The notes: generated from the sequence alone by a model not told the origin. A stretch of 63,498 bases of DNA, filler included, from 7 parts of 7 records of this genome joined end to end with filler, not necessarily neighbours in it; one strand, 5' to 3'; positions 1 to 44,501 are shown, counted from the whole stretch's first letter. Made by a program: numbers and translations.

Positions 1-1
1 A

Positions 2-304
2 TGCGCGTCGGCTAACCCATACCTGGTTTTTGCGGCCACCTTTGCCGCGGGATTGGACGGCATCGAAAACAAGATCGACCCGGGCGATCCTTATATTGGT
101 GATTGCTACGGGAACGAGGAACTGCCGCCCATCCCGTCCACGCTCAGTGAAGCCCTTGATGAACTCGAAAAGGATGAGGTTATCTGCAATGCCATCGGGC
201 CGGAAATGGTCCAGGCTTTCACCGCGGTCAAGAGGGAAGAGATCGGGCGTTTCAACACATACATAACGGATTGGGAATTCAACGAATATTCCCACCATCT
301 GTAA
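2..304 (+). CDS. Glutamine synthetase family protein, C-terminal fragment (possibly gamma-glutamylmethylamide synthetase, GmaS-like)
   Basis: Frame open from window start: CASANPYLVFAATFAAGLDGIENKIDPG...IPSTLSEALDELEKD...ITDWEFNEY, a typical GS C-terminus. GmaS role is inferred from the adjacent mgsABC-like genes. Confidence 0.85.
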   Translation, partial: CASANPYLVFAATFAAGLDGIENKIDPGDPYIGDCYGNEELPPIPSTLSEALDELEKDEVICNAIGPEMVQAFTAVKREEIGRFNTYITDWEFNEYSHHL

Positions 305-365
305 ACCTTCGGCTTCGGCCCCGCCTGGCAAGGGCAGGACCGAGCCCGTCCGAATGGAGGGCGCC

Positions 366-1265
366 ATGTGCGGAATCGCAGCTCTGCTTCAGAGGGACGC
401 AGCCGATTTGGGGGCTAAACTCATTGACATGCTGAGGGAAATGGCCCACAGGGGCCGGGACGCCACCGGCTTGGCCTATTACGAGGACCGGGACTTGGCC
501 CAGGTGCGTGTGGCCATGCCGGACAAGGACCTGCTGCAGGTCCTCGAGTCGATCGTCGCCCGCCACGGCCGGTTGATTGATTCCCGCAGCTACCAGGGAA
601 AGGGAGTTTTCACCTTTTTCGAGGGTACGGTGGATGTGCTTGAGGACGACTTGGTCGGACTTCACAGAGCCATCGACGATCACCCGGACCTCTGCGTTCA
701 TTCCATCGGCCGACGGCTCAAGATTTACAAAGACGAGGGCACGGCCGAGGATCTGGCTCGCCGGCATGCAGTCCGGGCGGGAACCTGCTCCCACGGCATT
801 GGTCACGTACGTTTGGCAACGGAGAGCGTGGAAAACATCAACCTGGCCCATCCATTCACGTCATATCTGTATCCGGAACTGGCCATCGTCCACAACGGCC
901 AGTTTACAAATTACTTCAATACCCGCCGGAACATGGAAGCCAGAGGCGTCAAATTCAAGACGACCAATGACTCGGAAATGGCCGCCCATTTCCTTGCTTG
1001 GGAAATGGCGGAAAACAAACGAGATCTGGATGGGGCCATGGCCCGGGCTCAGGAAGAACTGGACGGGGTCTTCACCATCATCGCCTCCACGGTCGATCAG
1101 CTTGGGGCCTTCAGAGACCGACTGGGTTGGAAACCGGTGCTTTATTACGAACTGGATGACGGCGGCGTTTTGCTGGGCTCGGAGCAGATCGCACTGACGC
1201 CCGTTGTGGCGGATGTTTACGCCACTGAACTCGAGCCGGGAGGAGTGAAGGTATGGTCCGTTTAG
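366..1265 (+). CDS. Class II glutamine amidotransferase; N-methylglutamate synthase subunit A-like (MgsA/GlxB)
   Basis: MCGIA start (Ntn Cys) after GGAGG RBS; HRGRDATG, GIGHVRLATES, AHPF, VHNGQFTNY, NDSE motifs. Confidence 0.85.
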   Translation: MCGIAALLQRDAADLGAKLIDMLREMAHRGRDATGLAYYEDRDLAQVRVAMPDKDLLQVLESIVARHGRLIDSRSYQGKGVFTFFEGTVDVLEDDLVGLHRAIDDHPDLCVHSIGRRLKIYKDEGTAEDLARRHAVRAGTCSHGIGHVRLATESVENINLAHPFTSYLYPELAIVHNGQFTNYFNTRRNMEARGVKFKTTNDSEMAAHFLAWEMAENKRDLDGAMARAQEELDGVFTIIASTVDQLGAFRDRLGWKPVLYYELDDGGVLLGSEQIALTPVVADVYATELEPGGVKVWSV

Positions 1266-1951
1266 ACATCGGCGGGCTGTCGACCCGGGAGGTAAACCGG
1301 AAGCTCAAGGAGGCCGCCGCTTCCGACGACGAGATCGTCGTGGTCAACACTCATTCGGTGCATAACTTCGCCACCGCTCTCAAAGGATCGGTTAAAGTAA
1401 CCGTCGAAGGCAGCACCGGGTTCTACACCGGCGGCTTTCTTAGCGGCCCAAGCATACACGTCAAGGGCAACACCGGCTGGTACACCGGTGACAACATGAG
1501 TTCCGGCGAGATTGTGGTGGATATGAACACGGGCAGCAACTGCGCGCCCAGCATGATCGGCGGAACAATACTGGTTCGGGGCCACAGCGGCAGCCGAGCC
1601 GGATTCGGCATGAAAGGCGGAAACCTTATCGTCTGCGGCAACGTGGGTATGTGGGTGGGCCAGATGACTCTGGGCGGACGGATCATCCTTCTGGGTGAAG
1701 TCGGCACGGGTCTGGGCGAATCCATGTATCAGGGCGTCATCCATTGCGCCGACCCAAGCGCGGAAAAGAAGCTGGGCGGCAACGTCAAACTGACCGATAT
1801 GGAGGAATCCGAGCGCAAAGAAGTCGCGGCTCTTTTCTCAAAATACGGCATCGAACAAAACGTGGATGAGCTGAAAAGCGTGGCGCCCAAGGTATACGGC
1901 CGCCACGAGTATCATTTGTTCAAACCTACCCACAAGCAGGCGGTGAGTTAA
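1253..1951 (+). CDS. GltB/FwdC-like GXGXG beta-helix protein; MgsB/GlxC-like
   Basis: Repeated VxGxxGxxxGxxMxGG units; overlaps the upstream gene. Confidence 0.85.
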   Translation: MVRLDIGGLSTREVNRKLKEAAASDDEIVVVNTHSVHNFATALKGSVKVTVEGSTGFYTGGFLSGPSIHVKGNTGWYTGDNMSSGEIVVDMNTGSNCAPSMIGGTILVRGHSGSRAGFGMKGGNLIVCGNVGMWVGQMTLGGRIILLGEVGTGLGESMYQGVIHCADPSAEKKLGGNVKLTDMEESERKEVAALFSKYGIEQNVDELKSVAPKVYGRHEYHLFKPTHKQAVS

Positions 1952-3244
1952 ATGTCGGCCGAAGAGAAAAAAACCAAGGCCAAGGACGTCCAGCGGGGCG
2001 TCTGGAACGCGGAAACGATTTCCGAGGTCCGGTACAAGGCGGAAACCGGCAAACACAGAATCCGGGGTTGCGGATCAACACGATACTTCCCCAACTTCGA
2101 CGACCTGTTAGTCCTGCCCGCTCAGCTTTCACGCCTGTCCGTGGATACCTATCGAGAGGAGTGCCGCACTCAAACCGTTCTCGGCAGCCGGTACGCCAAA
2201 AAACCATTGGTTATCGAGACTCCGATCATGATATCGGGCATGAGCTACGGCGCGCTGAGCAAGGAAGCCAAGATCGCCCTGGCCAAATCCACCCAAATCG
2301 TGGGCACATCCATCAACAACGGCGAGGGCGGCCTGCTGCCGGAGGAAAGGGACAACTCTTACAAGCAGGTGGTTCAGATCCTACCCAGCCGGTTCGGGTT
2401 CTCCCTCGAGAGTATCGAGGCGGCCGACGCGTTGGAAATCATCGTGGGCATCGGCGCCAAGCCTGGACTGTCCGGACACCTGATGGGGTCCAAGATCTCA
2501 AAGGAGATCGCCGAGTTCAGGCAGATCCCCACGGGCATCGATTTGCACAGCCACCCCCGCCATGGAGATATCTTCGGTGCGGATGACATGATCCTTAAGA
2601 TAGAGCAACTGAGGGACGTGACCGATTTCGAGATTCCGATATTCGTGAAGATCGCGGCCGGCCGGGTCAAGGAGGACGTGAAAATCGCGGTCAAGACGGG
2701 CGTGGACGGCATCGTGATCGATGGCGCCGAAGGCGGCACCGGAGCCGCTCCCGTAGTGGCCTCCAAGCACCTGGGCATCCCTACCCTGCCCGCCCTGATC
2801 CAGGCTGTTCGGGCCTTGGAGGAAATGGGCGTCAAGGAGGAGATGAGTCTGATCGTTTCCGGCGGCATCAGGGACGGGGCGGACGTGGCCAAGGCCATGG
2901 CCCTGGGAGCCGATGCGGTCGCCCTGGGCACGGGAACCATGGTTGCCATGGGCTGTGCGGTCTGCCTGCGGTGTCACGAAGGCAAATGCGCCTTCGGAAT
3001 CGGCACACAAGACCCGGAACTCAGGGCAAAGTTGGATGTGGACGAAGCTGCCGAGCGTGTGGCCCGCTACATCAAGGGTATGACCCACGAAGCGGTTATC
3101 CTGGCCAAGGCCGCGGGGAAGACCGCCCTGGCAAACCTTGAACGGGAAGACATCCGTTCCATGACCCTCGAAGCCTGCGCCATGACGGGCATACCCCTGA
3201 TTGGAAGCAACTTTGTCTTCGGCGAACAATTCGGTTTCTGCTGA
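1952..3244 (+). CDS. FMN-binding glutamate synthase domain protein; MgsC/GlxD-like
   Basis: PIMISGMSYGALS, NGEGG, GAKPG, DGAEGGTGAAP, SGGIRDGADVAKAMALGAD, and CAVCLRCHEGKCAFGIGTQDPELR Fe-S motif. Confidence 0.9.
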   Translation: MSAEEKKTKAKDVQRGVWNAETISEVRYKAETGKHRIRGCGSTRYFPNFDDLLVLPAQLSRLSVDTYREECRTQTVLGSRYAKKPLVIETPIMISGMSYGALSKEAKIALAKSTQIVGTSINNGEGGLLPEERDNSYKQVVQILPSRFGFSLESIEAADALEIIVGIGAKPGLSGHLMGSKISKEIAEFRQIPTGIDLHSHPRHGDIFGADDMILKIEQLRDVTDFEIPIFVKIAAGRVKEDVKIAVKTGVDGIVIDGAEGGTGAAPVVASKHLGIPTLPALIQAVRALEEMGVKEEMSLIVSGGIRDGADVAKAMALGADAVALGTGTMVAMGCAVCLRCHEGKCAFGIGTQDPELRAKLDVDEAAERVARYIKGMTHEAVILAKAAGKTALANLEREDIRSMTLEACAMTGIPLIGSNFVFGEQFGFC

Positions 3245-3275
3245 TTTCGAAGCAAGGGCGAAAAAAATGCAAAGC

Positions 3276-3611
3276 ATGAGAATCCAACAACATCCGGTCC
3301 TTGGGGAAATCGAAAAAGGGCGCAAGGTGACATTCACCTTCGACGGGAAACCCATGGAAGGATATGAGGGCGAGCCCGTTGCCGCCGCACTCAGGGCGGT
3401 AGGTGTTTTGATCCATCGTTATACGTCAAAGAGGAAAGAGCCGAGAGGGGTGTTTTGCGCTATCGGCCGTTGCACGGATTGCGTCATGATAGTGGACGGC
3501 AGACTCAATGTCCGCACCTGCGTTGAACCTCTAAAAGAGGGCATGGATGTCAGGACTCAGTACGGACTTGGCCGCGACGCGCTGAATGAGGCGGGTCATG
3601 GACAGGGTTGA
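3276..3611 (+). CDS. [2Fe-2S] subunit of a sarcosine oxidase/proline dehydrogenase/HcnA-like complex
   Basis: MRIQQHPVLG, GEPVAAAL, RGVFCAIGRCTDCVMIVDG..NVRTC; alternative start at 3267. Confidence 0.85.
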   Translation: MRIQQHPVLGEIEKGRKVTFTFDGKPMEGYEGEPVAAALRAVGVLIHRYTSKRKEPRGVFCAIGRCTDCVMIVDGRLNVRTCVEPLKEGMDVRTQYGLGRDALNEAGHGQG

Positions 3612-4686
3612 GATGATCTGCGTCGGGGCCGGGCCGGCAGGCCTGGCCGGGGCAATTGAGGCTGCCCGCTACGGCGTGCAAGTGGTAGTGTACGACGAGA
3701 ACGACCGGCCGGGCGGACAACTTTTCAAACAGATCCACAAGTTCTTTGGATCAAAGGAACACCGGGCCATGGAACGGGGCGTCTCCATCGGGCGCGGCCT
3801 TCTGGAGGAGGCTCGGGACCTGGGCGTGGACGTCCGGCTGCATTCAACGGTATTGGGGATTTACGAAAACCGCGTCCTGAACGTAATGCTCCACGACCAT
3901 ATTCACCAGGCTCGCGCCGAACGATTGCTCGTAGCCACGGGAGCTTCGGAAAACATGATTCCCTTCCCCGGTTGGACGCTGCCCGGGGTGATCGGGGCCG
4001 GCGCGGCCCAGACCATGGCCAATATTCACGGCATTCGGCCTGGAACACGGCTGCTCATGGTGGGATCGGGCAACGTGGGCCTGGTGGTCGGCTACCAGAT
4101 GATACAGGCCGGCTGCCGTGTGGAAGCGGTGATAGACGCCGCACCCCGAATCGGCGGGTATGGCGTGCATGCGGCCAAGGCGGCCCGTTTCGGAGTGCCG
4201 TTTTATATGTCACACACAATCAAGAAGGCCATCGGTGAAACCCGGATCGAGGGAGCCGAAATTGTGGCCGTGGACGATAAATGGCAGCCGATCCCGGGAA
4301 CGGAAAAAGGTCTGGACGTGGATGCCATCTGCCTGGCTGTCGGCCTGAACCCCATGAATCAGTTGTTGCGGATGTCCGGATGCGCCATGTCGTGGTCCCC
4401 GGTTTTGGGCGGATACGTACCAGCCCATGACGAAAAACAGGAAACCACGATCTCCGGCATATACGTGGCCGGGGACGTATCCGGAATCGAGGAGGCCAGT
4501 ACGGCCATCATTGAAGGCCGGGCGGCCGGTCTGGCAGCGGCCCACAGCCTGGGATACCTGGACGACTCATCATTTGCGGTAAAACTGGCTGAACAAAATC
4601 AAAATATGATCGGCTTGCGAAGCGGTCCCCATGGGGAAAACCGCCGACTGGCCAAAGAAGAACTCTTCCGAGCCGCATCAAGGTGA
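3598..4686 (+). CDS. FAD/NAD(P)-binding oxidoreductase subunit (sarcosine oxidase alpha N-domain/HcnB-like)
   Basis: VGAGPAGLAGA, GGQLFKQIHKFFG, ATGASE, FPGWTLPGV, VGSGNVG, YVAGDVSGIEEA. Confidence 0.88.
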   Translation: MDRVEMICVGAGPAGLAGAIEAARYGVQVVVYDENDRPGGQLFKQIHKFFGSKEHRAMERGVSIGRGLLEEARDLGVDVRLHSTVLGIYENRVLNVMLHDHIHQARAERLLVATGASENMIPFPGWTLPGVIGAGAAQTMANIHGIRPGTRLLMVGSGNVGLVVGYQMIQAGCRVEAVIDAAPRIGGYGVHAAKAARFGVPFYMSHTIKKAIGETRIEGAEIVAVDDKWQPIPGTEKGLDVDAICLAVGLNPMNQLLRMSGCAMSWSPVLGGYVPAHDEKQETTISGIYVAGDVSGIEEASTAIIEGRAAGLAAAHSLGYLDDSSFAVKLAEQNQNMIGLRSGPHGENRRLAKEELFRAASR

Positions 4687-4690
4687 TCGT

Positions 4691-5194
4691 ATGACGCAAG
4701 GGCTTTCCAGAAACGGGTATTGGTCGGATGAAGAATTGCTAAACAATCCGGGCGCCCCCTCGGAACAGCGACGCCGTAAAGGGCCGGTGGCCGTGATCGA
4801 ATGCCTCGAACTCATCCCCTGCAACCCGTGCGAATCCAGTTGCCGGGTCGGGGCCATCGAGGTGGGATCGGATATCACCGCTCTGCCGAAACTTATCGAG
4901 GATAAATGCGTGGGTTGTTTGACCTGCGCGTTCATCTGCCCGGGCCAGGCCATCTTTCTGGTGGACGAGAGTTTGGAAAACGGACGGGCCGAAGTGACAA
5001 TGCCTTATGAATTTCTGCCTCCACCCGAAAAAGGCGAGGAGGTGATCGCTCTGGACCGGGCGGGCCGGGAACTCGGGCCCGCGACGGTTACAATAGTAAG
5101 ACTAACGGAAAAAATGGACCGGACCGCTTTGGTCTCAATCGAGATTCCCCGCGAATGGTCCATGATTGCACGAGCTTTTCGATTGAATAGATAA
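4691..5194 (+). CDS. 4Fe-4S dicluster subunit of the same dehydrogenase
   Basis: CLELIPCNPCESSC and CVGCLTCAFICPGQAI motifs; AGGTGA RBS. Confidence 0.85.
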   Translation: MTQGLSRNGYWSDEELLNNPGAPSEQRRRKGPVAVIECLELIPCNPCESSCRVGAIEVGSDITALPKLIEDKCVGCLTCAFICPGQAIFLVDESLENGRAEVTMPYEFLPPPEKGEEVIALDRAGRELGPATVTIVRLTEKMDRTALVSIEIPREWSMIARAFRLNR

Positions 5195-5217
5195 CACCCT
5201 TGGGGAGGTAACGAAAA

Positions 5218-5499
5218 ATGGCGGAACAAGCGTTGGGAATGGTTGAAACTCGGGGCCTCGTAGCGGCTATCGAAGCGGCCGATGCCATGGTCAAAGCGGC
5301 CAATGTCCGGTTAGTGGGCAAGGAACACGCCGGCGGCGGACTGGTTTCGATTTATGTCAGGGGCGACGTAGGCGCGGTAAAGGCGGCTACGGATGCCGGC
5401 GGCGCCGCCGCGCAACGCGTGGGAGACCTTGTATCGGTTCATGTCATCCCCAGGCCCCACGCGGACGTGGAAATGATTATTCCAAAACCGGCGAAATAA
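5218..5499 (+). CDS. BMC-H hexameric shell protein (PduA/EutM-like)
   Basis: [26 protein letters not shown]...[13 protein letters not shown]...VHVIPRPH. Confidence 0.97.
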
Positions 5500-5644
5500 A
5501 GATCCCGGGGGCGGAGGCAGAGACAATACAGGGTCGATGCACCGCCCATGGACGGACCCTGGTCGAAAACCGTCGTTGCCAATCCAAACCAGGATGCGCT
5601 GAACGGAACCGGCCGGGTGTACCGACTTGGTGAAGGAGGGCCAT

Positions 5645-5950
5645 ATGGCTTTGAACGTACAATTCATCACCCACCCCGGCAGAGGAGTCATCGACATACT
5701 CCAAAGCCGAATGGGCGCCGGAGCCAAAAAGGCGATGGAACTGGTGAATTTCAGTGCCGTCGGCCTGGTCCAGGGGCGGTTGGTGGACATGATGTACGCG
5801 GCCGACGTGGCGGAAAAGGCGGCGGATGTCCAGGTCTTCGACCTGAAGGGCAGTTGTCCCCAGCACCTGACCATGATCGGCATCTTCGGAGATATCGCCG
5901 CGGTCAGGGCCGGTCTGGACGCCATCGTCGGGGATGAAACCTTAAAGTAG
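5645..5950 (+). CDS. Divergent BMC-H shell protein, GrpU-like (putative Fe-S binding)
   Basis: AVGLVQG..DMMYAADVAEKAA..DLKGSCPQHL..IFGDIAAV; GxCPQ is the GrpU signature; GAAGGAGG RBS. Confidence 0.8.
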   Translation: MALNVQFITHPGRGVIDILQSRMGAGAKKAMELVNFSAVGLVQGRLVDMMYAADVAEKAADVQVFDLKGSCPQHLTMIGIFGDIAAVRAGLDAIVGDETLK

Positions 5951-5987
5951 AGCCTCGCTATCGAGGCTTGAAGTCAGGTGAGGCAAA

Positions 5988-6269
5988 ATGGTAATCGCCA
6001 AGGTGGTCGGCAATGTCTGGTCGACAAAAAAAAATCCGAAGATCAACGCGCTCAGACTGCTTTTCGTTCAGCCTTTGGACCGCAATATGGAGCCGGCCGG
6101 AGAAGTGCTTGTGGCAGCCGACGAGATCGGGGCCGGGATCGGCGAGATGGTGCTGGTCACCTTGGGGTCGCCCGCCCGGGACGCCCTCACTCGGAGCGGC
6201 GACCCGGCGCCTCTGGACGCCGCGGTGGTGGCCATCGTTGACAGTCTGGATCTACCGGAAACGGATTGA
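5988..6269 (+). CDS. BMC-P vertex pentamer (EutN/CcmL family)
   Basis: MVIAKVVGNVWSTKK...VAADEIGAGIGEMVLV..GSPAR...DAAVVAIVD. Confidence 0.95.
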   Translation: MVIAKVVGNVWSTKKNPKINALRLLFVQPLDRNMEPAGEVLVAADEIGAGIGEMVLVTLGSPARDALTRSGDPAPLDAAVVAIVDSLDLPETD

Positions 6270-6280
6270 GGATATAGTGA

Positions 6281-7618
6281 GTGAGTAAAACGGCCGACAT
6301 CATTGAGAAAGTCCGTAGCGCCGGAGTGGTGGGCGCTGGTGGGGCCGGTTTCCCAACCCACATCAAACTCGACGCCAAGGTTGAAGTTGTTCTGGCCAAC
6401 GGCGCTTCCTGTGAACCGTTACTGGCAAGTGATACATGGCTCATGGAGCATGAGGCCACAGCCGTCATCCGGGGTCTGACGTCGGTGATGGAAGCCGTGG
6501 GCGCGGCCGAGGGCAAGATCTGCCTCAAGGGCAAACACAAAGCGGCCATGAGCGCGGTTAACAAAGCAGTTGCCGCGTCCGGTCACAAGGGCCTGGAGGT
6601 TGTGGAACTCGGTGATTTCTACCCGGCCGGCGACGAGCAGGTCCTGGTGTATGAGGTTCTGGGCAGGGTAGTACCCGAAGGCGGCATTCCGCTCCAGGTG
6701 GGCGCCGTGGTCTGCAACATAGAATCATTGTATAACGTGACCCTGGCATTAGAGGAAGACCGGCCGGTAACCGACCGCTTCCTTACCGTAGCCGGCGAAG
6801 TGTCCCGACCGATAATCACGAGGATTCCGTTGGGCGTGCGGATCGGCGACGTTATCGATTTGGCCGGAGGCGCGAAGATTTCCGACTTCAAGGTCATTGT
6901 CGGCGGTCCCATGATGGGTCTGGTTACCGCCGACCTGGATATGCCGGTGACCAAAACCGCCAGCGGTCTTATTGTTCTCCCGCCGGGCCATAACGTGGCG
7001 GTCGGCAAGATGAAGGACCCGGATCGACTGATGTACGTCACCCGCGTAGCCTGTTGCCAATGCTCACGCTGCACGGACATGTGTCCGCGCAACCTGTTGG
7101 GTCACGCACTCAGGCCGCATCTCATCATGCGCCAACTGGGATCTCCAATGGGTATCAGCCAGGAAATCATGCAGGACGCCCTGATCTGTTCGGAATGCGG
7201 TATTTGCGAAAAATTCGCCTGCCCCATGATGATTTCCCCCCGAGAAGTCAATGCCCGGATCAAGCGTGAACTGATGACCGCCGGAGTAAAAAGGGATCCG
7301 CGCACCGAAGAATATCGGCCCTCACGTTTTCGCGATGTAAGGTATATCCCTACCTCGCGGCTCATCGAGCGACTTCAACTTCGGCCGTATGACTTTCACA
7401 CCGAATATTTGGAATCGGATTTTCAGCCGGACCGGGCGGCCATCCCGCTTAAGCAGCATCTGGGCGCGCCGGCCTTGCCGGTGGTTAAGGTCGGGGATAT
7501 GGTAAAAAAAGGCGATTTGATCGGCGAGATCCCCGAAGGCGCCCTTGGCGCCCGGATTCACGCCGGTATGGACGGCCGGGTGGAAGCCGTCTCGGACGCC
7601 GTGATCATTCAGAGATAA
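6281..7618 (+). CDS. pduS: PduS-like (RnfC-like) flavin/Fe-S oxidoreductase
   Basis: AGVVGAGGAGFPTHIK, NGASCEPLL, FYPAGDEQVLVYEV, GGPMMG, CCQCSRCTDMCPRNLLGH, CSECGICEKFACP, PLKQHLGAP. Confidence 0.9.
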   Translation: MSKTADIIEKVRSAGVVGAGGAGFPTHIKLDAKVEVVLANGASCEPLLASDTWLMEHEATAVIRGLTSVMEAVGAAEGKICLKGKHKAAMSAVNKAVAASGHKGLEVVELGDFYPAGDEQVLVYEVLGRVVPEGGIPLQVGAVVCNIESLYNVTLALEEDRPVTDRFLTVAGEVSRPIITRIPLGVRIGDVIDLAGGAKISDFKVIVGGPMMGLVTADLDMPVTKTASGLIVLPPGHNVAVGKMKDPDRLMYVTRVACCQCSRCTDMCPRNLLGHALRPHLIMRQLGSPMGISQEIMQDALICSECGICEKFACPMMISPREVNARIKRELMTAGVKRDPRTEEYRPSRFRDVRYIPTSRLIERLQLRPYDFHTEYLESDFQPDRAAIPLKQHLGAPALPVVKVGDMVKKGDLIGEIPEGALGARIHAGMDGRVEAVSDAVIIQR

Positions 7619-7627
7619 AGGACGGGA

Positions 7628-8188
7628 ATGACCAACATGGAATTTCGAGCTATCGGCCTGATCGAACTGCAAAGCGTCGCCACAGGCATCCTGTGCGCGG
7701 ATGAAATGATCAAGTCCGCCAGCGTCGATCTCATCCTCGCCCGGGCTATCTGCCCGGGGCGGTACATGGCCATGATTTCCGGAGATACCGGCGCCGTACA
7801 AAACGCCGTGGATGTTGGGCGCGAAAGGGCCGGCGAGTTTCTGGTGGATTGGTTTGTCATCCCCAATGTGCACCCCGACGTCTTCCCGGCTTTCAACTGC
7901 ACCACGCCCTTAGTGAACTTGCGTTCCCTGGGCGTCATCGAAACCTATTCCGCCGCCTCATGCATCACCGCCGCCGACGCCGCCGCCAAAGCCGGCGATA
8001 TAGATCTCATTGAAATCCGCTGCGCCACAGGCCTGGCCGGGAAATCCTTCGTCACCCTCACCGGGGACGTCGGTTCGGTCAACGCTTCGGTGGAAGCCGG
8101 TGTGGGCGCCATCATCGATACGGGATTGGTCATGAGCTACGTGGTCATTCCCGCGCCGAGCAAGGAACTTTACGGATCTCTGGCATGA
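7628..8188 (+). CDS. pduT: PduT-like BMC-T shell protein
   Basis: AIGLIELQSVATGI..ADEMIKSA, ICPGRY pore Cys, second domain LGVIETYSAAS..AADAAAKA; directly follows pduS. Confidence 0.9.
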   Translation: MTNMEFRAIGLIELQSVATGILCADEMIKSASVDLILARAICPGRYMAMISGDTGAVQNAVDVGRERAGEFLVDWFVIPNVHPDVFPAFNCTTPLVNLRSLGVIETYSAASCITAADAAAKAGDIDLIEIRCATGLAGKSFVTLTGDVGSVNASVEAGVGAIIDTGLVMSYVVIPAPSKELYGSLA

Positions 8189-9018
8189 AAGATATTGTGA
8201 AACATACAGCCGCGCTGGTGAACCGGCCCGACTCCTGGGATTTCGAAGGCGCGCGCACGCTCTACGCAGGAGTGGACGTAGGCACTTTCAAGATTGGTTT
8301 GATCGTGGTGGATGAGGAAGGACGGCCCCGTGCCGCGATGATCCGCCGGGCCGACGTCGTCAAGTCCGGCCTGGTGGTCGATTATTTTGGAGCGTTGACC
8401 TACGTCAGGGAAATGATCGGGGAACTCCGCTCAATTTCGCCCATTCCCATCGAGAAAGGGGCCACTTCATACCCGCCTCGGACCGAATCCGGAAACATTA
8501 ATACCACCCGTCACATATTGGAAGCGGTAGGCTTGGATGTCCTGAATATATTGGACGAACCCAGCGCGGCCAACCTGGTGCTCGGCCTTTCCGCCGGGGC
8601 CATCGTGGATGTGGGCGGCGGCACTACCGGCGTAGCCGTGATCGAGGACGGCCGGATCGTATACACCGACGACGAGGCCACCGGCGGGGTGCACCTGACG
8701 TTGGTTCTGGCGGGCGGCCTGGGAGTGGATTACGAGGAGGCCGAGCGGATCAAGATGGACAGGTCCAGGCAAGGGGAACTGCTGCCCATGGTGCTGCCGG
8801 TGATCGAGAAAATATCTACTATCGTCAACGGAGTTCTTCGGAAAAACAGGGCAGTGGACCGACTTTGCCTTGTTGGCGGCACAACGGAATTCGAGGGATT
8901 TGACAGGGTGATAGGGTCCATCTGCGGAATCGAGGCTTTTCGTCCGCCGTCGCCCCGGGTTGTGACCCCCCTCGGCATTGCCCTGTCCTGCCTGAAGAGT
9001 AACGGAGGCGTCCAATGA
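8185..9018 (+). CDS. eutJ: EutJ-family Hsp70/actin-like protein
   Basis: GVDVGT, VVKSGLVVDYFGA, LDEPSAA, VDVGGGTTG, DEATGGVHLTLVLAG, VTPLGIA. Confidence 0.92.
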   Translation: MKDIVKHTAALVNRPDSWDFEGARTLYAGVDVGTFKIGLIVVDEEGRPRAAMIRRADVVKSGLVVDYFGALTYVREMIGELRSISPIPIEKGATSYPPRTESGNINTTRHILEAVGLDVLNILDEPSAANLVLGLSAGAIVDVGGGTTGVAVIEDGRIVYTDDEATGGVHLTLVLAGGLGVDYEEAERIKMDRSRQGELLPMVLPVIEKISTIVNGVLRKNRAVDRLCLVGGTTEFEGFDRVIGSICGIEAFRPPSPRVVTPLGIALSCLKSNGGVQ

Positions 9019-9824
9019 GCACTCCGAGCAAAGCGGAAATCGGGCGAATCGTCAGAAGGGTGTTGGATGAGGTACTGAAAAACAGTGCTTCCATACCGGA
9101 GGCTTCCCCCAAATCCGGCCCTCGCGCGCTGATCGTTTACCACGGCGGCACGGCTCGCCTTGAAGAGGCCCGGAAAGAAACCGACCGGATCGGCGAGGCC
9201 AGCTTCAAGTCCGGTGTGTTAATTTCCGAAGCGGTTCGGGAAGACATATGCGGAATCGGTACCGACGGACGGCCCAGGGGGCAGTGCCAACTCGATACCG
9301 TCCCTCATCCCGGCCTGGAAACGGTATTGGAAAGGGCGGATGTCCTGGTTCTGCCGACCTTCTGCCTGACCGTGGCGGCCAAAGCAGTCCGGCTGGAATT
9401 TAGCGACCCTGACGCCGGGCTGGTGCTTTCGGCCCTGGTGCAAAACAAACCCGTGCTGGCGTCAAACGACGGATTTCTGGTGTTAGGTCGGTTGAAGAAC
9501 GAAAAACTGCGGATGGAATTCGACCGGATTCTTTCCGTTCTGGCCGACTGGGGGGTGACCTTTACGCCCACGGAAAAACTGGCCGACGAGTTCTTCCGGC
9601 TGATCGGTTCGAATAAAAAAGCCGATCCCGCACCGGTCTCCCCGGTCGCGTCATCCGCCCCGTTGGAAACCGGCGGCCTGAAGCTGATCTCCGCCAACGA
9701 CGTTCGCCGGGCGGTGAATGAAAAGAGAAAAGAAATCTTCCTTGCACCGGGCGGACTGATAACGCCATTGGCCCGGGATCTGGCCAAGGATTATTCAATA
9801 ACCATCAAATTGCATGGAGCTTGA
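9015..9824 (+). CDS. BMC-associated flavoprotein-like protein with N-terminal encapsulation-peptide-like helix
   Basis: N-terminal KAEIGRIVRRVLDEVLK amphipathic helix; ADVLVLPT...AAK...LVQNKPVLA core; C-terminal LISANDV...LITPLARDLAK module. Confidence 0.65.
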   Translation: MSTPSKAEIGRIVRRVLDEVLKNSASIPEASPKSGPRALIVYHGGTARLEEARKETDRIGEASFKSGVLISEAVREDICGIGTDGRPRGQCQLDTVPHPGLETVLERADVLVLPTFCLTVAAKAVRLEFSDPDAGLVLSALVQNKPVLASNDGFLVLGRLKNEKLRMEFDRILSVLADWGVTFTPTEKLADEFFRLIGSNKKADPAPVSPVASSAPLETGGLKLISANDVRRAVNEKRKEIFLAPGGLITPLARDLAKDYSITIKLHGA

Positions 9825-9827
9825 GGA

Positions 9828-10448
9828 ATGACCGAACTCCGAGCCTATTGTCACCTGGATCGCCTGCAACCCCAATTCTCGTCCCTATTGGCCAGCCGCT
9901 GCCGGGGCTTCATGCCCGTGGAGGGCATGGCCTCCCTGATCGTCGAGATCGCGCCGGGCGTCGAGATCAACCGGTTGACCGACATTTCCCTCAAGCTGAC
10001 CAATGCCAAGCCCGGGGAGATGATAGTTGAACGGCGTTACGGGATGCTGGAGATCCATTCGTTCGACCAGGAGGAGATTCTCCACGCCGGCCAGATGATC
10101 CTGGAGGAGCTTGGGCTCAGGGAGGATGACCGGCTGATGCCCAGCATCCTGACTACCAGCATCATCAACAAGATCGACCCGTACCAGGCGGTGATAATCA
10201 ACCGCAACAGTTCGGGGATGCTCATTCTGGGCGGGGACGACGTATACCTTCTGGAAGTGGCCCCGGCTGCCTATTCGGCATTGGCAGCCAATGAAGCGGA
10301 AAAGTTCACGGGAGTGAAGCTGGTGGACATGCGTTTTTACGGCGCGGCCGGTCGCGTCTACCTGGCCGGCGCCGAATCGGAAATACTGGCCGCGGCCCAA
10401 AAGGTTGTTGAAACGCTGAATACCGTAACGGGCCGACCCGGCAAGTAA
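9828..10448 (+). CDS. BMC-Tdp shell protein (CcmP/CsoS1D-like), copy 1
   Basis: ELRAYCHLDRLQPQF, VEIAPG, IVERRYGMLEIHS, LEVAPAAY..LAANEAEK, GAAGRVYLAG. Confidence 0.9.
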   Translation: MTELRAYCHLDRLQPQFSSLLASRCRGFMPVEGMASLIVEIAPGVEINRLTDISLKLTNAKPGEMIVERRYGMLEIHSFDQEEILHAGQMILEELGLREDDRLMPSILTTSIINKIDPYQAVIINRNSSGMLILGGDDVYLLEVAPAAYSALAANEAEKFTGVKLVDMRFYGAAGRVYLAGAESEILAAAQKVVETLNTVTGRPGK

Positions 10449-10475
10449 CAAGAATTGTAATAACGGAGCCCGATT

Positions 10476-11054
10476 ATGCCGATTTTCATATTCGCCCGAG
10501 ATGCACAGGACGTGGTCCTGGAAGGCGGCAAAAAGCTGGTCGTTCCTGAAAACGCCCGCATCACCATGGCCGCCCGGGAAGTGATCCGGGACTATGGCCT
10601 GGAAGTGGTTTACCAGCCGCCGGCCTCACCGATGCCCGCGGCGGCGCCGGAGCCTGTGGCGTCCTCGGCTGCTCCGGATGGGGATATCACGGATGAGGAC
10701 GTGGAAATCATTCTCGGCAGAGTGCTGGAACGCCTCGCCCTGGCCAAAGGTGAAAAAAAACCGGTTGCCGCGCCTTCCGTTGAACCGGCCGATGACGATG
10801 AATTGATCATCTGCAGGTGCGAGGAGATTACCAAGGGAGAGATTCGGGATGCCATCCGAACAGGCATGTCCACCCTCAACGGCGTCAAACGAGTTACTCG
10901 CGCCGGCATGGGTCTTTGCCAGGGCCAGACCTGTCAACGCCTGGTCACCCAAATCCTTTGCAGTGAGCTCGGCCTCGGCCCCGCCGACGTCGCCCCAACA
11001 ACCGCCCGCGCTCCGGTCCGCCCGGTTCCGCTTACGGCCCTGGCCTCGGGTTAG
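10476..11054 (+). CDS. BFD-like [2Fe-2S] dehydrogenase subunit fused to a BMC-type N-terminal module and putative encapsulation peptide
   Basis: C-terminal IICRCEEIT...KRVTRAGMGLCQGQTC...RAPVRPV; Pro/Ala linkers flank ITDEDVEIILGRVLERLALA. Confidence 0.85.
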   Translation: MPIFIFARDAQDVVLEGGKKLVVPENARITMAAREVIRDYGLEVVYQPPASPMPAAAPEPVASSAAPDGDITDEDVEIILGRVLERLALAKGEKKPVAAPSVEPADDDELIICRCEEITKGEIRDAIRTGMSTLNGVKRVTRAGMGLCQGQTCQRLVTQILCSELGLGPADVAPTTARAPVRPVPLTALASG

Positions 11055-11063
11055 GAGGGAAAC

Positions 11064-12269
11064 ATGCCCGAAACCGCGGATATTGTGATTATTGGCGGCG
11101 GCGTAATGGGTTGCGGCCTGGCCTACTTTCTGGCCAAGGAAGGCCTGCGCGCGGTTGTGATCGAAAAGTCGGACATCGGCGGCGAAGCCTCCGGCAGCAA
11201 CGGCGGGGGCGTTCGCCAATCGGCCCGGCACCTCAAGGAAATGCCCCTGGCCATGGCCAGCGTGAAGATGTACGAAACACTTCACGAAGAGCTGGGCATG
11301 GACGTGGAATATACCCAAAAAGGCAATTTGAGGCTCTGCGTTTCCGAGGCCGAAGTCGAATCCATGAAGAGCTCGGTGAAAAGCCAAAAAGCCGTCGGCC
11401 TTGACCTGGAGTTTCTGGACCGCAAACAGATTCTCGATATAAACCCGTACGTGGGTGAAAAGGTTATCGGCGCCAGTTGGTGCGCCACGGATGGCCACGT
11501 CAACCCGCTGCTGGTTACATATGGTTTTTTCAAAAGGGCAAAAGAGCGGGGCGCGACATTTCATACCCATGAAAAGGTGACCGATATCTTCTTTCGTCAG
11601 GGGCGTGTCCGGGGTGTTGTGACCGAACAGCGCGTCATCGAAACCGACACCGTGGTCAATGCCGCCGGTGTTGCCGGGCGGGAAATCGCCAACATGGTCG
11701 GGCTGGATATGCCCCTGCGCCCCATTTTTTCAGAGGCCTTGATCACGGAGCCTTATCCGGAACTGTTTCCCCAAATGGTGGGCCAGGCCGCCGGGCTTTT
11801 TTACGGCCGCCAGACCAAACACGGCTCCTTCTTCTGGGGCGGTTTCTCCGGCGACGAGCAGTTTATCCACCGGGGAGGAAAGCCTCTTTTCCACTATATC
11901 GGCCCGGTCATCGCCCGCATGGTAAACGACTATTTCCCCGTGCTTCGGGATCTGCACGCCATTCGCATGTGGTCCGGGCTGATCGCCGGCATGTCCGACG
12001 GGCTGCCTATTCTGGGTCTGGTCGAGGAGACGCCCGGATTCGTCTTTATGACCGGTTTTTCCGGGCACGGATTCGGCATCGCTCCGATCATAACCAAGCT
12101 GATGTCCGAACTCATTCTGGACTGCAAGCCTTCCATGCCCCTAAATGACTTTTGCTACACCCGCTTCCAGAAGAACGGCGAACTAGATTGCGCCTGCCAT
12201 AGCGGCGACGCCTGCGCGGTCCATTCGACGCTTTGCCCGAACAAGCGGGAATTTTTAAGGAATTTATAA
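11064..12269 (+). CDS. FAD-dependent amine/amino-acid oxidoreductase (DAO family; SoxB/MgdA/HcnC-like)
   Basis: IIGGGVMG, EASGSNGGGVR, DGHVNP, VVNAAG, MSDGLPILG, GFSGHGFGIAP. Confidence 0.9.
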   Translation: MPETADIVIIGGGVMGCGLAYFLAKEGLRAVVIEKSDIGGEASGSNGGGVRQSARHLKEMPLAMASVKMYETLHEELGMDVEYTQKGNLRLCVSEAEVESMKSSVKSQKAVGLDLEFLDRKQILDINPYVGEKVIGASWCATDGHVNPLLVTYGFFKRAKERGATFHTHEKVTDIFFRQGRVRGVVTEQRVIETDTVVNAAGVAGREIANMVGLDMPLRPIFSEALITEPYPELFPQMVGQAAGLFYGRQTKHGSFFWGGFSGDEQFIHRGGKPLFHYIGPVIARMVNDYFPVLRDLHAIRMWSGLIAGMSDGLPILGLVEETPGFVFMTGFSGHGFGIAPIITKLMSELILDCKPSMPLNDFCYTRFQKNGELDCACHSGDACAVHSTLCPNKREFLRNL

Positions 12270-12285
12270 ACAGGAGCTCCGTAAA

Positions 12286-12906
12286 ATGGTGGATCTGAGA
12301 GCTTACGCCATCATCGACCAACTCCAGCGGCAGTTTGTTGGCTTTATCGGTTCGACCGCCAAGGGGTACTACCCCGTGGCCGGTCAATCGGCTCTGTTCA
12401 TCGAAATCGCCCCGGGATTGGAAATCAATACGTTAACCAATGTCGTGCTGAAGAAATCAGGGGTGCTTCCGGGCGCCATGGTTGTTGAGCGTAACTTCGG
12501 GATGCTGGAAGTCCACGCCGACGACCCTTCGGACGTGAACGAGGCCGGGGCCGTCCTCCTCGAAAGCCTTGGGCTTCGGGAAGAGGACCGCATAAAACCG
12601 GAAATTTTATCATCGGTTGTCATCGAGCGGGCCGATCCGTTCATGGCCCAGATCGTCAACCGCTTTCGTAACGCCAACATGCTACAGAGCGACCAGACCA
12701 TGTACACATTGGAGATCGTGCCGGCCGGATATGCCGGTTTGGCCGCCAACGAGGCGGAAAAGGCCGCCGACATCACGCTTGTCCACGTAACAGTATTCGG
12801 GGCTTCGGGTCGTGTCTATCTGGCCGGGTCATCATCCGACATTCAAGCCGCCAAGGAAGCCGCCGAAAGCGCTTTGGCGGCCTTGACCGGGCGGGAGACC
12901 GGTTAA
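12286..12906 (+). CDS. BMC-Tdp shell protein, copy 2
   Basis: DLRAYAIIDQLQRQF, IEIAPG, VERNFGMLEVH, LEIVPAGYAGLAANEAEKAA, GASGRVYLAG. Confidence 0.9.
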   Translation: MVDLRAYAIIDQLQRQFVGFIGSTAKGYYPVAGQSALFIEIAPGLEINTLTNVVLKKSGVLPGAMVVERNFGMLEVHADDPSDVNEAGAVLLESLGLREEDRIKPEILSSVVIERADPFMAQIVNRFRNANMLQSDQTMYTLEIVPAGYAGLAANEAEKAADITLVHVTVFGASGRVYLAGSSSDIQAAKEAAESALAALTGRETG

Positions 12907-12928
12907 CCGGGTTTGTAAGGCAAAAATC

Positions 12929-13888
12929 ATGAGCGCCATGAGCAAACAAGATCTCCTCAAAAAAATAATTCGAATCTACCCCAAGCTTTCGAAGAAAAAA
13001 AAGCGAGTGGCCGACTATATCCTGTCCGACTACAAGAGTCTTTTCCTGACCACGGCCAAGGAGCTGGCCGCTATCTGCGAGGTTAGCGAACCCACCGTCA
13101 TCCGCTTCGTCGGCGACCTGGGATTCAACGGTTACATAGAGTTCGAACGATACATCAAAGGCCTCCTGCATGTGGAACTCACCAGCGTGGAACGGCTCGT
13201 CAAAACCAAACCCGCCAGCTCGGCAGCCACCACCCTGGAAGCCTACACCGATAATACCGTTAAAAATCTGGAAAACATGATCAACACCGTCTCGGCCGAG
13301 GAACTCGGCCGTCTGGCAATAGCCATTCACCGTGCGCCGGCCGTGATCGTGGCCGGTTTTCGGGCTTCGGCCGTTCTGGCCCAATATTTCGGGTATCTGT
13401 TGAGGAAGGTCCGCCATGATGTGTTCATCGAAACCACGGCCTCGGTTGACACATATGACCGCATTGCCTTGTCCGGCCCCGATGTAACTCTTGTGGTTAT
13501 CTGTTTTCCAAGGTATCCTGAAAAAACCATTGAACTCGCGAAATACGCACAAAAGTTCAAGACTCCGGTCATAGGCATTAGTGATATACCCAAATCTCCA
13601 ATAATATCGCTGTCCGATCAGTTTGTGGCGTTAGACATCGACGGGATCAGCTTTGTCGATCCTTTTGCTCATATCATCACCTTTCTGGGCGCCCTGATTC
13701 ATGAGATCACCTTTATTGATGAAGAAGCCACATTGAAGAGGCTCAAACAAATCGAGGCAGGCGTAAAGGAACGGGTGGAGTTCTACTCGCTTGAGGATGA
13801 AGGAATCCGGGATTACGATCCCCTGGAATTCCCGTCCCAGGAAGCCATCGCGCCCGGCACTGATTTTAGTCGAAATCAAAAACGGTAG
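12929..13888 (+). CDS. MurR/RpiR family transcriptional regulator
   Basis: LSKKKKRVADYIL..ELAAICEVSEPTVIRF..LGFNGY HTH, followed by an SIS domain (GFRAS, FPRYP, SDIPKSPI). Confidence 0.92.
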   Translation: MSAMSKQDLLKKIIRIYPKLSKKKKRVADYILSDYKSLFLTTAKELAAICEVSEPTVIRFVGDLGFNGYIEFERYIKGLLHVELTSVERLVKTKPASSAATTLEAYTDNTVKNLENMINTVSAEELGRLAIAIHRAPAVIVAGFRASAVLAQYFGYLLRKVRHDVFIETTASVDTYDRIALSGPDVTLVVICFPRYPEKTIELAKYAQKFKTPVIGISDIPKSPIISLSDQFVALDIDGISFVDPFAHIITFLGALIHEITFIDEEATLKRLKQIEAGVKERVEFYSLEDEGIRDYDPLEFPSQEAIAPGTDFSRNQKR

Positions 13889-13967
13889 ATCGACCGCATT
13901 AGGCGGGTGGATGAAATAAAGCGGAGTGTCCGATTGGGGAAGACTGCTCCCGATCGGCCCCCGACGA

Positions 13968-14067
13968 NNNNNNNNNNNNNNNNNNNNNNNNNNNNNNNNN
14001 NNNNNNNNNNNTTAATTAATTAANNNNNNNNNNNNNNNNNNNNNNNNNNNNNNNNNNNNNNNNNNNN
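13968..14067. other. Artificial contig linker
   Basis: N-run, TTAATTAATTAA (stops in all frames), N-run; base composition changes abruptly across it. Confidence 0.98.
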
Positions 14068-20720: not shown

Positions 20721-20820
20721 NNNNNNNNNNNNNNNNNNNNNNNNNNNNNNNNNNNNNNNNNNNNTTAATTAATTAANNNNNNNNNNNNNNNNNNNNNNNN
20801 NNNNNNNNNNNNNNNNNNNN
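20721..20820. other. Artificial contig linker
   Basis: N-TTAATTAATTAA-N. Confidence 0.98.
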
Positions 20821-30368: not shown

Positions 30369-30468
30369 NNNNNNNNNNNNNNNNNNNNNNNNNNNNNNNN
30401 NNNNNNNNNNNNTTAATTAATTAANNNNNNNNNNNNNNNNNNNNNNNNNNNNNNNNNNNNNNNNNNNN
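30369..30468. other. Artificial contig linker
   Basis: N-TTAATTAATTAA-N. Confidence 0.98.
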
Positions 30469-36541: not shown

Positions 36542-36641
36542 NNNNNNNNNNNNNNNNNNNNNNNNNNNNNNNNNNNNNNNNNNNNTTAATTAATTAANNN
36601 NNNNNNNNNNNNNNNNNNNNNNNNNNNNNNNNNNNNNNNNN
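36542..36641. other. Artificial contig linker
   Basis: N-TTAATTAATTAA-N. Confidence 0.98.
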
Positions 36642-44401: not shown

Positions 44402-44501
44402 NNNNNNNNNNNNNNNNNNNNNNNNNNNNNNNNNNNNNNNNNNNNTTAATTAATTAANNNNNNNNNNNNNNNNNNNNNNNNNNNNNNNNNNNNNNNNNNN
44501 N
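44402..44501. other. Artificial contig linker
   Basis: N-TTAATTAATTAA-N. Confidence 0.98.

Follow-up and report, generated by a model that had tools for sequence, protein, structure and literature searches.

What would a bacterial microcompartment (BMC) do with an amine dehydrogenase that is distributed over five genes, interrupted by shell genes and free of any folate-binding domain? This question is raised by a locus on the first contig (1-13967) of the window analysed here, that is, the whole stretch of 63,498 nucleotides, which consists of seven contigs joined by 100-base spacers made of N runs around TTAATTAATTAA. The answer that we favour, tentatively and as a proposition that falls only a little short of probable, is that an N-methylglutamate-like or saccharopine-like pathway, re-tooled for another amine, is encapsulated in this compartment of Desulfobacteria. 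In such a pathway, the five genes would encode one split flavo-iron-sulfur dehydrogenase, made up of a DAO-family catalytic subunit, an alpha-like subunit in three genes and a di-[4Fe-4S] protein, working with a glutamine synthetase (GS)-like ligase and with a glutamate-synthase-like trio of amidotransferase, GXGXG and flavin mononucleotide (FMN) subunits; the amine would probably be anionic and imported by a tripartite ATP-independent periplasmic (TRAP) system. The five genes are treated as a functional unit whose substrate would be an opine-like secondary amine supplied by the trio, mainly because in one variant of the locus they vanish together and an opine dehydrogenase is encoded instead.

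The locus contig (13,967 bases, G+C content 0.58) is cut at both ends and is occupied over its whole length by a single operon on the + strand. Since it comprises positions 1-13967, genes missing at its ends are to be regarded as cut off rather than absent. Its open reading frames (ORFs) were searched with Pfam and NCBIfam profiles, some starts being fixed by homologues, and encode the following proteins:

2..304, + strand: last 100 residues of a GS-family ligase (Gln-synt_C, E 4e-29), truncated by the contig start; full-length homologues in genomes G223, G001 and G744
366..1265, + strand: class II amidotransferase subunit (GltB1/GlxB-like; GATase_6/7) with a Met-Cys start, the N-terminal Cys being as in Rhizobium etli GlxB
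1253..1951, + strand: GXGXG subunit (GltB3/GlxC-like; PF01493, E 3.8e-22)
1952..3244, + strand: FMN subunit (GltB2/GlxD-like; Glu_synthase, E 1e-105) with a four-Cys iron-sulfur motif
3276..3611, + strand: 2Fe-2S subunit, Fer2_4 (like the SoxA N-terminus or HcnA; PF13510, E 1e-29), start taken from homologues
3586..4686, + strand: FAD/NAD(P) subunit, PyrRedox, 366 residues, without BFD, A3 or GcvT domain (Pyr_redox_2, E 8e-32; positions 169-493 of the SoxA-family model, E 6e-41)
4691..5194, + strand: di-[4Fe-4S] ferredoxin-like subunit, Fer4 (Fer4 families; conserved Cys motifs), with a C-terminal domain of about 70 residues
5218..5499, + strand: BMC-H shell hexamer protein (PF00936, E 1.7e-28; EutM model, 131 bits)
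5645..5950, + strand: GrpU-like BMC-H, 101 residues (BMC domain PF00936, E 2.6e-8), with a G-S-C-P-Q-H motif
5988..6269, + strand: BMC-P vertex protein (EutN_CcmL, PF03319, E 1.7e-28)
6281..7618, + strand: PduS-like flavo-iron-sulfur protein (Complex1_51K, SLBB, Fer4_17, RnfC_N)
7628..8188, + strand: PduT-like tandem BMC-T (two BMC domains, PF00936, E 9e-46; eut_PduT model, E 8e-37)
8185..9018, + strand: EutJ-like actin-fold ATPase (PRK15080 EutJ, 288 bits against a cut-off of 182)
9015..9824, + strand: conserved cargo-like protein of 269 residues, outside Pfam families
9828..10448, + strand: CcmP-like double-domain BMC-T, copy 1 (NF053796, 232 bits)
10476..11054, + strand: BFD [2Fe-2S] plus SoxA-A3 subunit, BFD-A3 (Fer2_BFD, 2.7e-14; SO_alpha_A3, 1.6e-12)
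11064..12269, + strand: DAO-family catalytic flavoprotein (DAO, E 4e-73)
12286..12906, + strand: CcmP-like double-domain BMC-T, copy 2 (NF053796, 230 bits)
12929..13888, + strand: RpiR/SIS-type transcription regulator (HTH_6 and SIS)

The start of Fer4 at 4691 follows its homologues, the longest ORF starting at 4631. An ORF at 5548-5937 was rejected as a gene: it is in the wrong frame and its translation is rich in Arg, Gly and Pro, the real gene being that at 5645-5950. The initial annotation had described a five-part dehydrogenase in two blocks (3276-5194 and 10476-12269), and both its coordinates and its estimate of about 360 residues for the FAD/NAD subunit agree with the Pfam and NCBIfam results, which place all five genes on the + strand. 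It had also counted eight BMC genes between the blocks; the number is right, and they comprise five genes for shell proteins and three for accessory proteins (PduS-like, EutJ-like and the 269-residue protein).

By family, the dehydrogenase is assigned from its sequence to the proline-dehydrogenase / opine-oxidase / HcnABC branch, nearer than to sarcosine oxidase. Indeed, (i) the matches of DAO among solved structures are led by chain B of the Pyrococcus horikoshii L-proline dehydrogenase (1y56_B, 1.2e-49, residues 1-377), followed by glycine oxidase (1.7e-31) and SoxB (1e-28), and its identity to the SoxB of R. etli, which belongs to a true N-methylglutamate cluster, is 25.5%; (ii) PyrRedox matches SoxA (2gag_A, 9e-20) and 1y56_A (9e-11, residues 109-258); (iii) the C-terminal half of BFD-A3 matches residues 408-491 of 1y56_A and residues 448-562 of SoxA. 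On the SoxA-family model, Fer2_4 covers positions 9-99, PyrRedox 169-493 and BFD-A3 521-597, positions 600-996 being uncovered; Fer2_4, PyrRedox, BFD and A3 thus jointly rebuild the N-terminal 600 residues of SoxA. The complete domain set of the branch (DAO, FAD/NAD, BFD, A3 and Fer2_4) is encoded here, on separate genes and without a folate domain. The likeness to proline-dehydrogenase-type complexes, which the initial annotation had mentioned as a second option, provides the better family placement.

Several enzymes of this branch share the domain triad Fer2_4, Pyr_redox_2-BFD-A3 and DAO, namely opine oxidase (OoxAB), D-hydroxyproline dehydrogenase (LhpBEF) and hydrogen cyanide synthase (HcnABC), which form imines by oxidising secondary amines or glycine. 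Unlike them, the enzyme of the locus has a split alpha subunit and an additional di-[4Fe-4S] subunit, is probably encapsulated, and is coupled with a GS-like ligase and a glutamate-synthase-like trio. The archaeal L-proline dehydrogenase PDH1 of P. horikoshii (PDB 1Y56), whose chains are matched by DAO, PyrRedox and BFD-A3, likewise lacks a folate domain, and archaeal dye-linked L-proline dehydrogenases reportedly also exist in a four-subunit alpha-beta-gamma-delta form with extra small iron-sulfur subunits. Compared with PDH1, the genes described here are located in a bacterial microcompartment locus, with alpha split into three genes, two of which are 6 kb from the third. Three features are new with respect to the whole branch: the distribution of the alpha subunit over three genes, a four-Cys tail on DAO, and the N-terminal domain, linker and helix of BFD-A3. 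The DAO tail (12190-12269, residues ~376-401) has the pattern CxC-x5-C-x6/7-CP and does not vary among the full-length homologues listed. It is situated past the end of the alignment with 1y56_B, at residue 377, and could bind an extra metal or iron-sulfur site. In BFD-A3, an alignment of 9 homologues revealed a conserved N-terminal domain of 45 residues, a variable linker and an amphipathic, targeting-peptide-like helix. The Cys motifs of the Fer4 subunit are also conserved among homologues.

As had been noticed initially, a GcvT-like domain is lacking: GCV_T (PF01571), PF08669, SoxD and SoxG gave zero matches (E <= 0.01) in the 18 window ORFs, the intergenic gaps are too short to leave room for further small subunits such as SoxD and SoxG, and no match to GCV_T, SoxD or SoxG was obtained among the ORFs scanned in related loci. 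Upstream, where a GcvT or SoxG partner might have been expected, only the trio and the C-terminus of the GS-family ligase are encoded. SoxBDAG/MgdABCD enzymes differ in both respects, since their alpha subunit carries a C-terminal GcvT-like folate-binding domain and since they have small SoxD and SoxG subunits. However, the idea that the folate domain was lost from a SoxA/Mgd enzyme does not hold, DAO being far closer to the proline dehydrogenase beta subunit than to SoxB. No member of the proline-dehydrogenase / opine-oxidase / HcnABC branch is known to carry GcvT, and its absence here is therefore the norm of the family rather than a deletion.

GCV_T is present in all five carrier genomes searched, on none of the contigs that carry the locus. 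Three of these genomes (G001, G223, G401) have up to eight GCV_T matches each, many of them in open frames of ~810-1080 residues that fit DAO-GcvT fusions of the dimethylglycine/sarcosine-dehydrogenase type, which suggests that the carrier genomes use methylated amines broadly with folate, outside the compartment. Within the same phylum, a non-compartment cluster of the N-methylglutamate type was found in G509 (L131:9241-14537), with a trio (47% identity), a DAO and a GmaS-type ligase that has Asp177; its SoxA is full-length, with Fer2_4, Pyr_redox_2, A3, GCV_T and GCV_T_C. G541 was dropped from the SoxA comparison, the 1050-residue ORF beside its DAO having given no Pfam match.

The variant locus, found in genome G787, retains the trio (74% identity) together with shell and accessory genes (BMC-H, BMC-P, PduS, PduT, EutJ and a CcmP-like protein), and also encodes an aldehyde dehydrogenase and a Peptidase_C26 protein (2e-61). 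When its 34.5-kb contig was searched by tblastn, none of Fer2_4, PyrRedox, Fer4, BFD-A3 and DAO gave a match, and the best DAO match anywhere in the genome has 29-33% identity. In place of the five genes, a protein of the Octopine_DH family (3.9e-33; L133:5358-6641) is encoded between the shell genes. It carries a 40-residue N-terminal extension, composed of an amphipathic helix resembling an encapsulation peptide and of a Gly/Ser/Pro linker; 19 other matches to this protein share at most 39% identity with it. Genes for a corrinoid protein and for URO-D-type methyltransferases follow in this locus.

By sequence, the trio links the locus to the N-methylglutamate pathway. The FMN subunit shares 47-50% identity with GlxD proteins encoded on rhizobial and other plasmids, where glxB, glxC, glnT and either soxBDAG or folate genes are its neighbours, i.e. 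the N-methylglutamate pathway, and some of its close homologues are annotated at source as 'methylamine-glutamate N-methyltransferase subunit C'. The three-subunit set of MgsABC/GlxBCD is complete here, with a class II amidotransferase with Cys1, a GXGXG subunit and an FMN domain, the function of the set being predicted from these sequences. A CX2CX2CX4C motif is found in 18/18 FMN-subunit homologues from compartment loci. The corresponding motif of GltA, from Bacillus subtilis glutamate synthase (7mfm), contains three Cys, which we take to be the ligands of the 3Fe-4S cluster and with which three of the four Cys are aligned. The proteobacterial GlxD proteins compared (3/3) differ in having no Cys at this motif and a 16-residue insert, whereas the Cys are retained in G509 and G541, whose loci were the two checked within the phylum that lie outside compartments. 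The motif was for this reason rejected as proof that the trio is distinct from N-methylglutamate synthase, G509 being precisely the genome with a full-length SoxA. No gene for a GltD-type reductase is present in the locus, PyrRedox matching glutamate synthase small-subunit models only weakly (E 1e-11 to 3e-15).

The ligase of the locus, of which the window holds the last 100 residues, is encoded at full length in relatives and is predicted from its sequence to be neither GlnA nor GmaS. It remains below all NCBIfam equivalog cut-offs, with 321 bits on the GlnA model (cut-off 429) and 320 bits on the type-III model, likewise under its cut-off. In the five carrier genomes, a separate canonical GlnA is encoded elsewhere (646-668 bits), the locus ligases reaching 250-321 bits against the same cut-off of 429. 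In the GmaS structure paper, Asp177 is 'strictly conserved' and proposed to deprotonate methylamine; the features that mark a GmaS are a flap Trp, which replaces Glu, and three catalytic residues, Asp177, Glu186 and Arg312 (PMC7948447). When 3 ligases of compartment loci were aligned with five of the GmaS type, all 3 had an Asn at the position of Asp177. In the same three ligases, Phe-Phe replaces the Asp-Ala of GmaS, Glu186 is retained, and the flap is six residues shorter, without the Trp of GmaS and without the catalytic Glu of glutamine synthetase; the Asp and the flap Trp are present in 5/5 comparison ligases from N-methylglutamate-type clusters. Thus, the module logic of the N-methylglutamate pathway (GmaS, MgsABC/GlxBCD, MgdABCD) is shared, with a GS-family ligase, the trio and a DAO-type dehydrogenase related to SoxA/SoxB, whereas GcvT, SoxD and SoxG, the two ligase residues and close relationship to SoxB are not. 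Because the ligase has an Asn for Asp177 and no flap Trp, formaldehyde formed from methylamine is an unlikely product. The free formaldehyde proposed in the initial annotation is therefore not supported, while its broader suggestion of a reactive imine or aldehyde fits the aldehyde dehydrogenases and RidA encoded downstream in relatives.

The sequence of reactions that we infer would be as follows. The ligase would gamma-glutamylate the amine, and the trio would then move the amine to 2-oxoglutarate or glutamate, yielding an N-substituted glutamate, i.e. an opine-like secondary amine. Inside the shell, the dehydrogenase, if its five gene products do assemble into a single complex, would oxidise the C-N bond on the substrate side, and hydrolysis of the imine, assisted by RidA, would release glutamate and an aldehyde. 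The latter would be converted into acyl-CoA by targeted coenzyme A (CoA)-acylating aldehyde dehydrogenases. Electrons would exit via the iron-sulfur carriers Fer4 and PduS, via the 2Fe-2S centres and via two iron-sulfur shell proteins, one PduT-like and one GrpU-like, and not via an alcohol dehydrogenase. Class-I amidotransferase/C26-like proteins are typical of gamma-glutamylation pathways (PuuD, IpuF, TdnT), and the recurrence of such a protein in related loci (22/54) fits a pathway of this kind. In the saccharopine pathway of lysine breakdown, an amine and 2-oxoglutarate similarly form an N-substituted glutamate, from which cleavage at the opposite side yields glutamate and an aldehyde. The proposed chemistry is alike, but the enzyme families are unrelated and neither an ATP-dependent gamma-glutamylation nor a compartment is involved there, so that this is a mechanistic analogy only.

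Shell markers occur together in the locus, with PF00936 at 5218-5499, 5645-5950 and 7628-8188, PF03319 at 5988-6269, and two CcmP-like BMC-T; by the criterion of a BMC-H combined with a BMC-P, it is a predicted bacterial microcompartment (metabolosome) locus. The position of the GrpU-like BMC-H between BMC-H and BMC-P is kept in related loci, and its G-S-C-P-Q-H motif is a probable iron-sulfur site at the pore; for the motifs of both the PduT-like and the GrpU-like shell proteins we presume an iron-sulfur role. Both aldehyde dehydrogenases of relatives match the EutE/PduP-type model (527 and 516 bits; cut-off 403) and have N-terminal amphipathic helices that, judged by eye, resemble known encapsulation peptides. 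Helices similar to this N-terminal type are also found on BFD-A3 and on the 269-residue protein, which may be among the encapsulated proteins. The 269-residue protein could not be assigned to a Pfam family. In its predicted model (predicted local distance difference test, 78.7), the N-terminus forms a helix resembling a targeting peptide and the core is flavoprotein (HFCD)-like; Foldseek returned UbiX/CoaC/EpiD (E about 5e-5, template modelling score 0.55-0.63), and PF02441 was obtained as an atlas lead (0.90). The pattern of its C-terminal domain of ~45 residues recurs at the N-terminus of BFD-A3 (10476-10610). Neither an alcohol dehydrogenase nor a phosphotransacylase was found among the ORFs scanned.

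The arrangement of these genes is conserved far beyond chance. A scan of genomes gave 60 pattern matches, of which 1 was confirmed, in an uncultured Desulfobacula genome. A DAO search of 401 sampled Desulfobacteria genomes yielded 13 genomes with a match at E <= 1e-60 (ten with 65-72% identity, three with 40-41%), and a metagenome scan yielded 126 relatives, the best 80 of which, with 65-74% identity, were retained. According to tblastn, the gene order of the locus is repeated in G045, G223, G240 and G744, and partially in G185, G313, G335 and G401, while G001 is rearranged; it is also repeated in most of 45 metagenome loci of at least 6 kb. The entire gene set is encoded on a 2.6-Mb contig of G744. 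ORFs were clustered over 54 loci, comprising the window, 8 loci from genomes and these 45 out of the 80 retained from metagenomes. In the resulting counts, upstream genes are underestimated, their distance from the DAO anchor being above 10 kb and contigs often being short, and greedy ORF calling sometimes took antisense ORFs over small genes. With these limits, clusters were counted for DAO (53/54 loci), the CcmP-like protein (50/54), BFD-A3 (48/54), RpiR (46/54), PduT/BMC (43/54), the 269-residue protein (40/54), EutJ (39/54), the aldehyde dehydrogenase (39/54, 55 copies), PduS (38/54), RidA (29/54), PyrRedox (29/54), Fer4 (28/54), BMC-P (27/54), DctP, DctM and DctQ (23, 21 and 20 of the 54), the class-I amidotransferase-like protein (22/54), the FMN subunit (18/54), an old yellow enzyme (OYE)-type protein (9/54) and Amidohydro_3 (7/54).

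Downstream of RpiR, relatives encode one or two CoA-acylating aldehyde dehydrogenases, RidA, often the OYE-type and class-I amidotransferase-like proteins, and the TRAP transporter DctPQM, which is replaced by a Liv-type ATP-binding cassette (ABC) system in two loci. Extra genes are present in some related loci (L023:12976-13839; L089:7887-8333; L110:6661-8394; L106:17180-21171): these are a cyclophilin-like/DUF3830 protein (Cucumopine_C, E 6e-4, under cut-off), Amidohydro_3, or the Liv-type ABC system in place of TRAP, all of which may be clues to the substrate. Molybdopterin oxidoreductases encoded nearby were rejected as formate dehydrogenases, as they reach 284-339 bits against a cut-off of 666 and match a thiosulfate reductase model equally well.

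Several points weigh against the encapsulated pathway proposed above. The variant without the five genes is known from one genome only, 1/401 of those sampled. No targeting helix was seen on the trio, PyrRedox, Fer2_4 or Fer4. An aldehyde dehydrogenase is missing from the window, as the contig ends at 13967. Furthermore, the affinity of DAO to proline dehydrogenase and a DctP-type binding protein most similar to lactate/keto-acid binders (2zzv, 1.3e-27) leave room for an imino or amino acid that is imported and oxidised directly; the glutamate-synthase-type iron-sulfur ligands of the FMN subunit fit a true reductive glutamate synthase; and the Fer2_4/PyrRedox/Fer4 block is located directly after the FMN subunit in 15/16 examined loci that include this subunit, and stays beside the trio in the rearranged G001, where BFD-A3 and DAO are elsewhere. 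These last three points lead to two other explanations.

According to the first, which we judge unlikely, the substrate of the dehydrogenase is itself imported as an imino or amino acid, or is an opine that already exists as such (candidates are proline, hydroxyproline, glycine/sarcosine, D-amino acids and marine opines), RidA hydrolyses the imine, and the GS-like enzyme and the trio form a glutamine synthetase-glutamate synthase pair that recaptures ammonia. Import of such a substrate is possible because the best solved relative of DAO is the beta subunit of L-proline dehydrogenase and because its non-compartment paralogues are encoded beside ornithine cyclodeaminase. Indeed, the nearest of these paralogues, found in three genomes of the class (40-41% identity), include two annotated operons in which ornithine cyclodeaminase is followed by Fer2_4, by PyrRedox and BFD-A3 fused in one gene, and by DAO; an amino-acid permease is encoded close to them and, in one of the two (G234), RidA. 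Further homologues, on proteobacterial plasmids, have DAO identities of 30-34% and neighbours annotated as '(2Fe-2S)-binding' and 'FAD/NAD(P)-binding'. The alignment of the FMN-subunit Cys with those of glutamate synthase, the affinities of the binding protein, and the Amidohydro_3 or Liv-type amino-acid transport genes of some loci point in the same direction. However, ammonia recapture is hard to reconcile with the canonical GlnA encoded elsewhere in 5/5 carrier genomes, with a ligase that lacks the flap segment holding the catalytic Glu of glutamine synthetase and falls under all equivalog cut-offs, and with the recurrent class-I amidotransferase/C26-like protein. In addition, 2-oxo-acid products, except glyoxylate or semialdehydes, would need no CoA-acylating aldehyde dehydrogenases.

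The second explanation, to which we give a comparably low probability and which could be combined with either pathway, is that two enzymes are encoded: Fer2_4, PyrRedox and Fer4 would be an NAD(P)H- or ferredoxin-linked reductase of the trio, i.e. an analogue of a split GltD, and BFD-A3 with DAO would be a separate dehydrogenase. The block could serve the trio rather than DAO because it adjoins the FMN subunit and stays with the trio in G001; BFD-A3 and DAO are always paired, an FMN subunit with iron-sulfur ligands needs an electron partner, and PyrRedox does match glutamate synthase small-subunit models. Against this, the match of PyrRedox to the SoxA-family model (6e-41) is much the stronger one, the four domains rebuild the N-terminal part of SoxA, a fused alpha subunit adjoins DAO in non-compartment operons, and G787 retains the trio on a contig from which all five genes are missing. 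A multimer prediction of the FMN subunit with PyrRedox and Fer4 weighs neither way on binding, its score being no lower when the FMN subunit was replaced.

The least probable explanation, an encapsulated N-methylglutamate/sarcosine pathway for methylamine in which the folate-less dehydrogenase frees formaldehyde, the shell confines it and the aldehyde dehydrogenase converts it into formyl-CoA, agrees with the 47-50% identity to GlxD, the annotations of some homologues, the absence of GcvT from the locus, the many ~820-residue DAO-GcvT fusion genes suggestive of a methylated-amine lifestyle and the methyltransferase genes adjoining the G787 variant, but is improbable in view of the Asn at the Asp177 position of the ligases, set against the published description of GmaS (PMC7948447), of a DAO nearer to proline dehydrogenase than to SoxB, of TRAP or Liv-type uptake systems that would be superfluous for methylamine, and of the separate canonical cluster that the same phylum possesses in G509.

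The encapsulated pathway via an opine-like glutamate also bears on an already catalogued compartment type. In the hidden Markov model (HMM) table of Sutter et al. 2021, DAO and Fer2_BFD models are named 'mic6', and in the shell tree of the same source a 99-residue grpU-like BMC-H from a Desulfobacteraceae genome is labelled MIC6 (PMC8217296). On these HMM names and this one tree entry, as distinct from a sequence comparison, the locus is probably of type MIC6. The corresponding passage of that source describes MIC2-7 as being of unknown function, with an aldehyde dehydrogenase but no obvious signature enzyme (PMC8217296). The locus shares with metabolosomes, MIC6 among them, the genes for BMC-H, BMC-P, BMC-T, PduS and EutJ, to which its relatives add EutE/PduP-type aldehyde dehydrogenases; unlike MIC6 as catalogued in the parts of the source cited, it is given here a candidate set of signature enzymes (PMC8217296). 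In the literature, no paper was found that joins microcompartments with N-methylglutamate chemistry or with glutamate synthase and sarcosine oxidase, nor with gamma-glutamyl pathways of this kind, opine dehydrogenase or Desulfobacula compartments of this type. The compartment type is already catalogued, and no paper on its chemistry was found.

The six spacers of the window are located at 13968-14067 (which ends the locus contig), 20721-20820, 30369-30468, 36542-36641, 44402-44501 and 58384-58483. The remaining pieces have G+C contents of 0.33-0.61 and encode genes unrelated to the locus, the low-G+C pieces carrying Bacteroidota-style genes (DUF4270, DUF4249, TonB-dependent receptor). The record looks like a mixed or binned assembly, in which genes across spacers are unlinked. 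On another contig, a 506-residue ORF (42721-44241, - strand) has a weak match to the reverse-transcriptase domain RVT_1 (E 1.2e-6, under cut-off).

In most metabolosomes, the aldehyde is supplied by an aldolase or by an enzyme of the B12 or glycyl-radical type. In this locus, no source of an aldehyde is plausible other than the flavo-iron-sulfur amine dehydrogenase, fed by the GS-like ligase and the glutamate-synthase-like enzyme, and the role of the compartment is probably the safe conversion of an amine to a reactive aldehyde. If the pathway favoured here is correct, a compartment type of 'unknown function' would gain a testable chemistry, the N-methylglutamate/opine logic would have been adapted to anaerobes and to encapsulation, and a natural system for electron transfer across a protein shell would be available. 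It is possible, although rather doubtful, that the locus represents a deamination independent of pyridoxal phosphate, which would cycle glutamate in a widespread compartment of marine sulfate reducers via a gamma-glutamylated amine, an opine-like glutamate and an encapsulated dehydrogenase, with electrons crossing the shell through the PduT-like and GrpU-like iron-sulfur proteins; this would define a new class of metabolosome signature enzyme, and an amine abundant in the sea would have a further, anaerobic sink that is new. Since over 120 clusters in databases match the FMN subunit at 82-92% identity, the pathway appears to be common in sediment communities, where it may matter for the turnover of amines and nitrogen.

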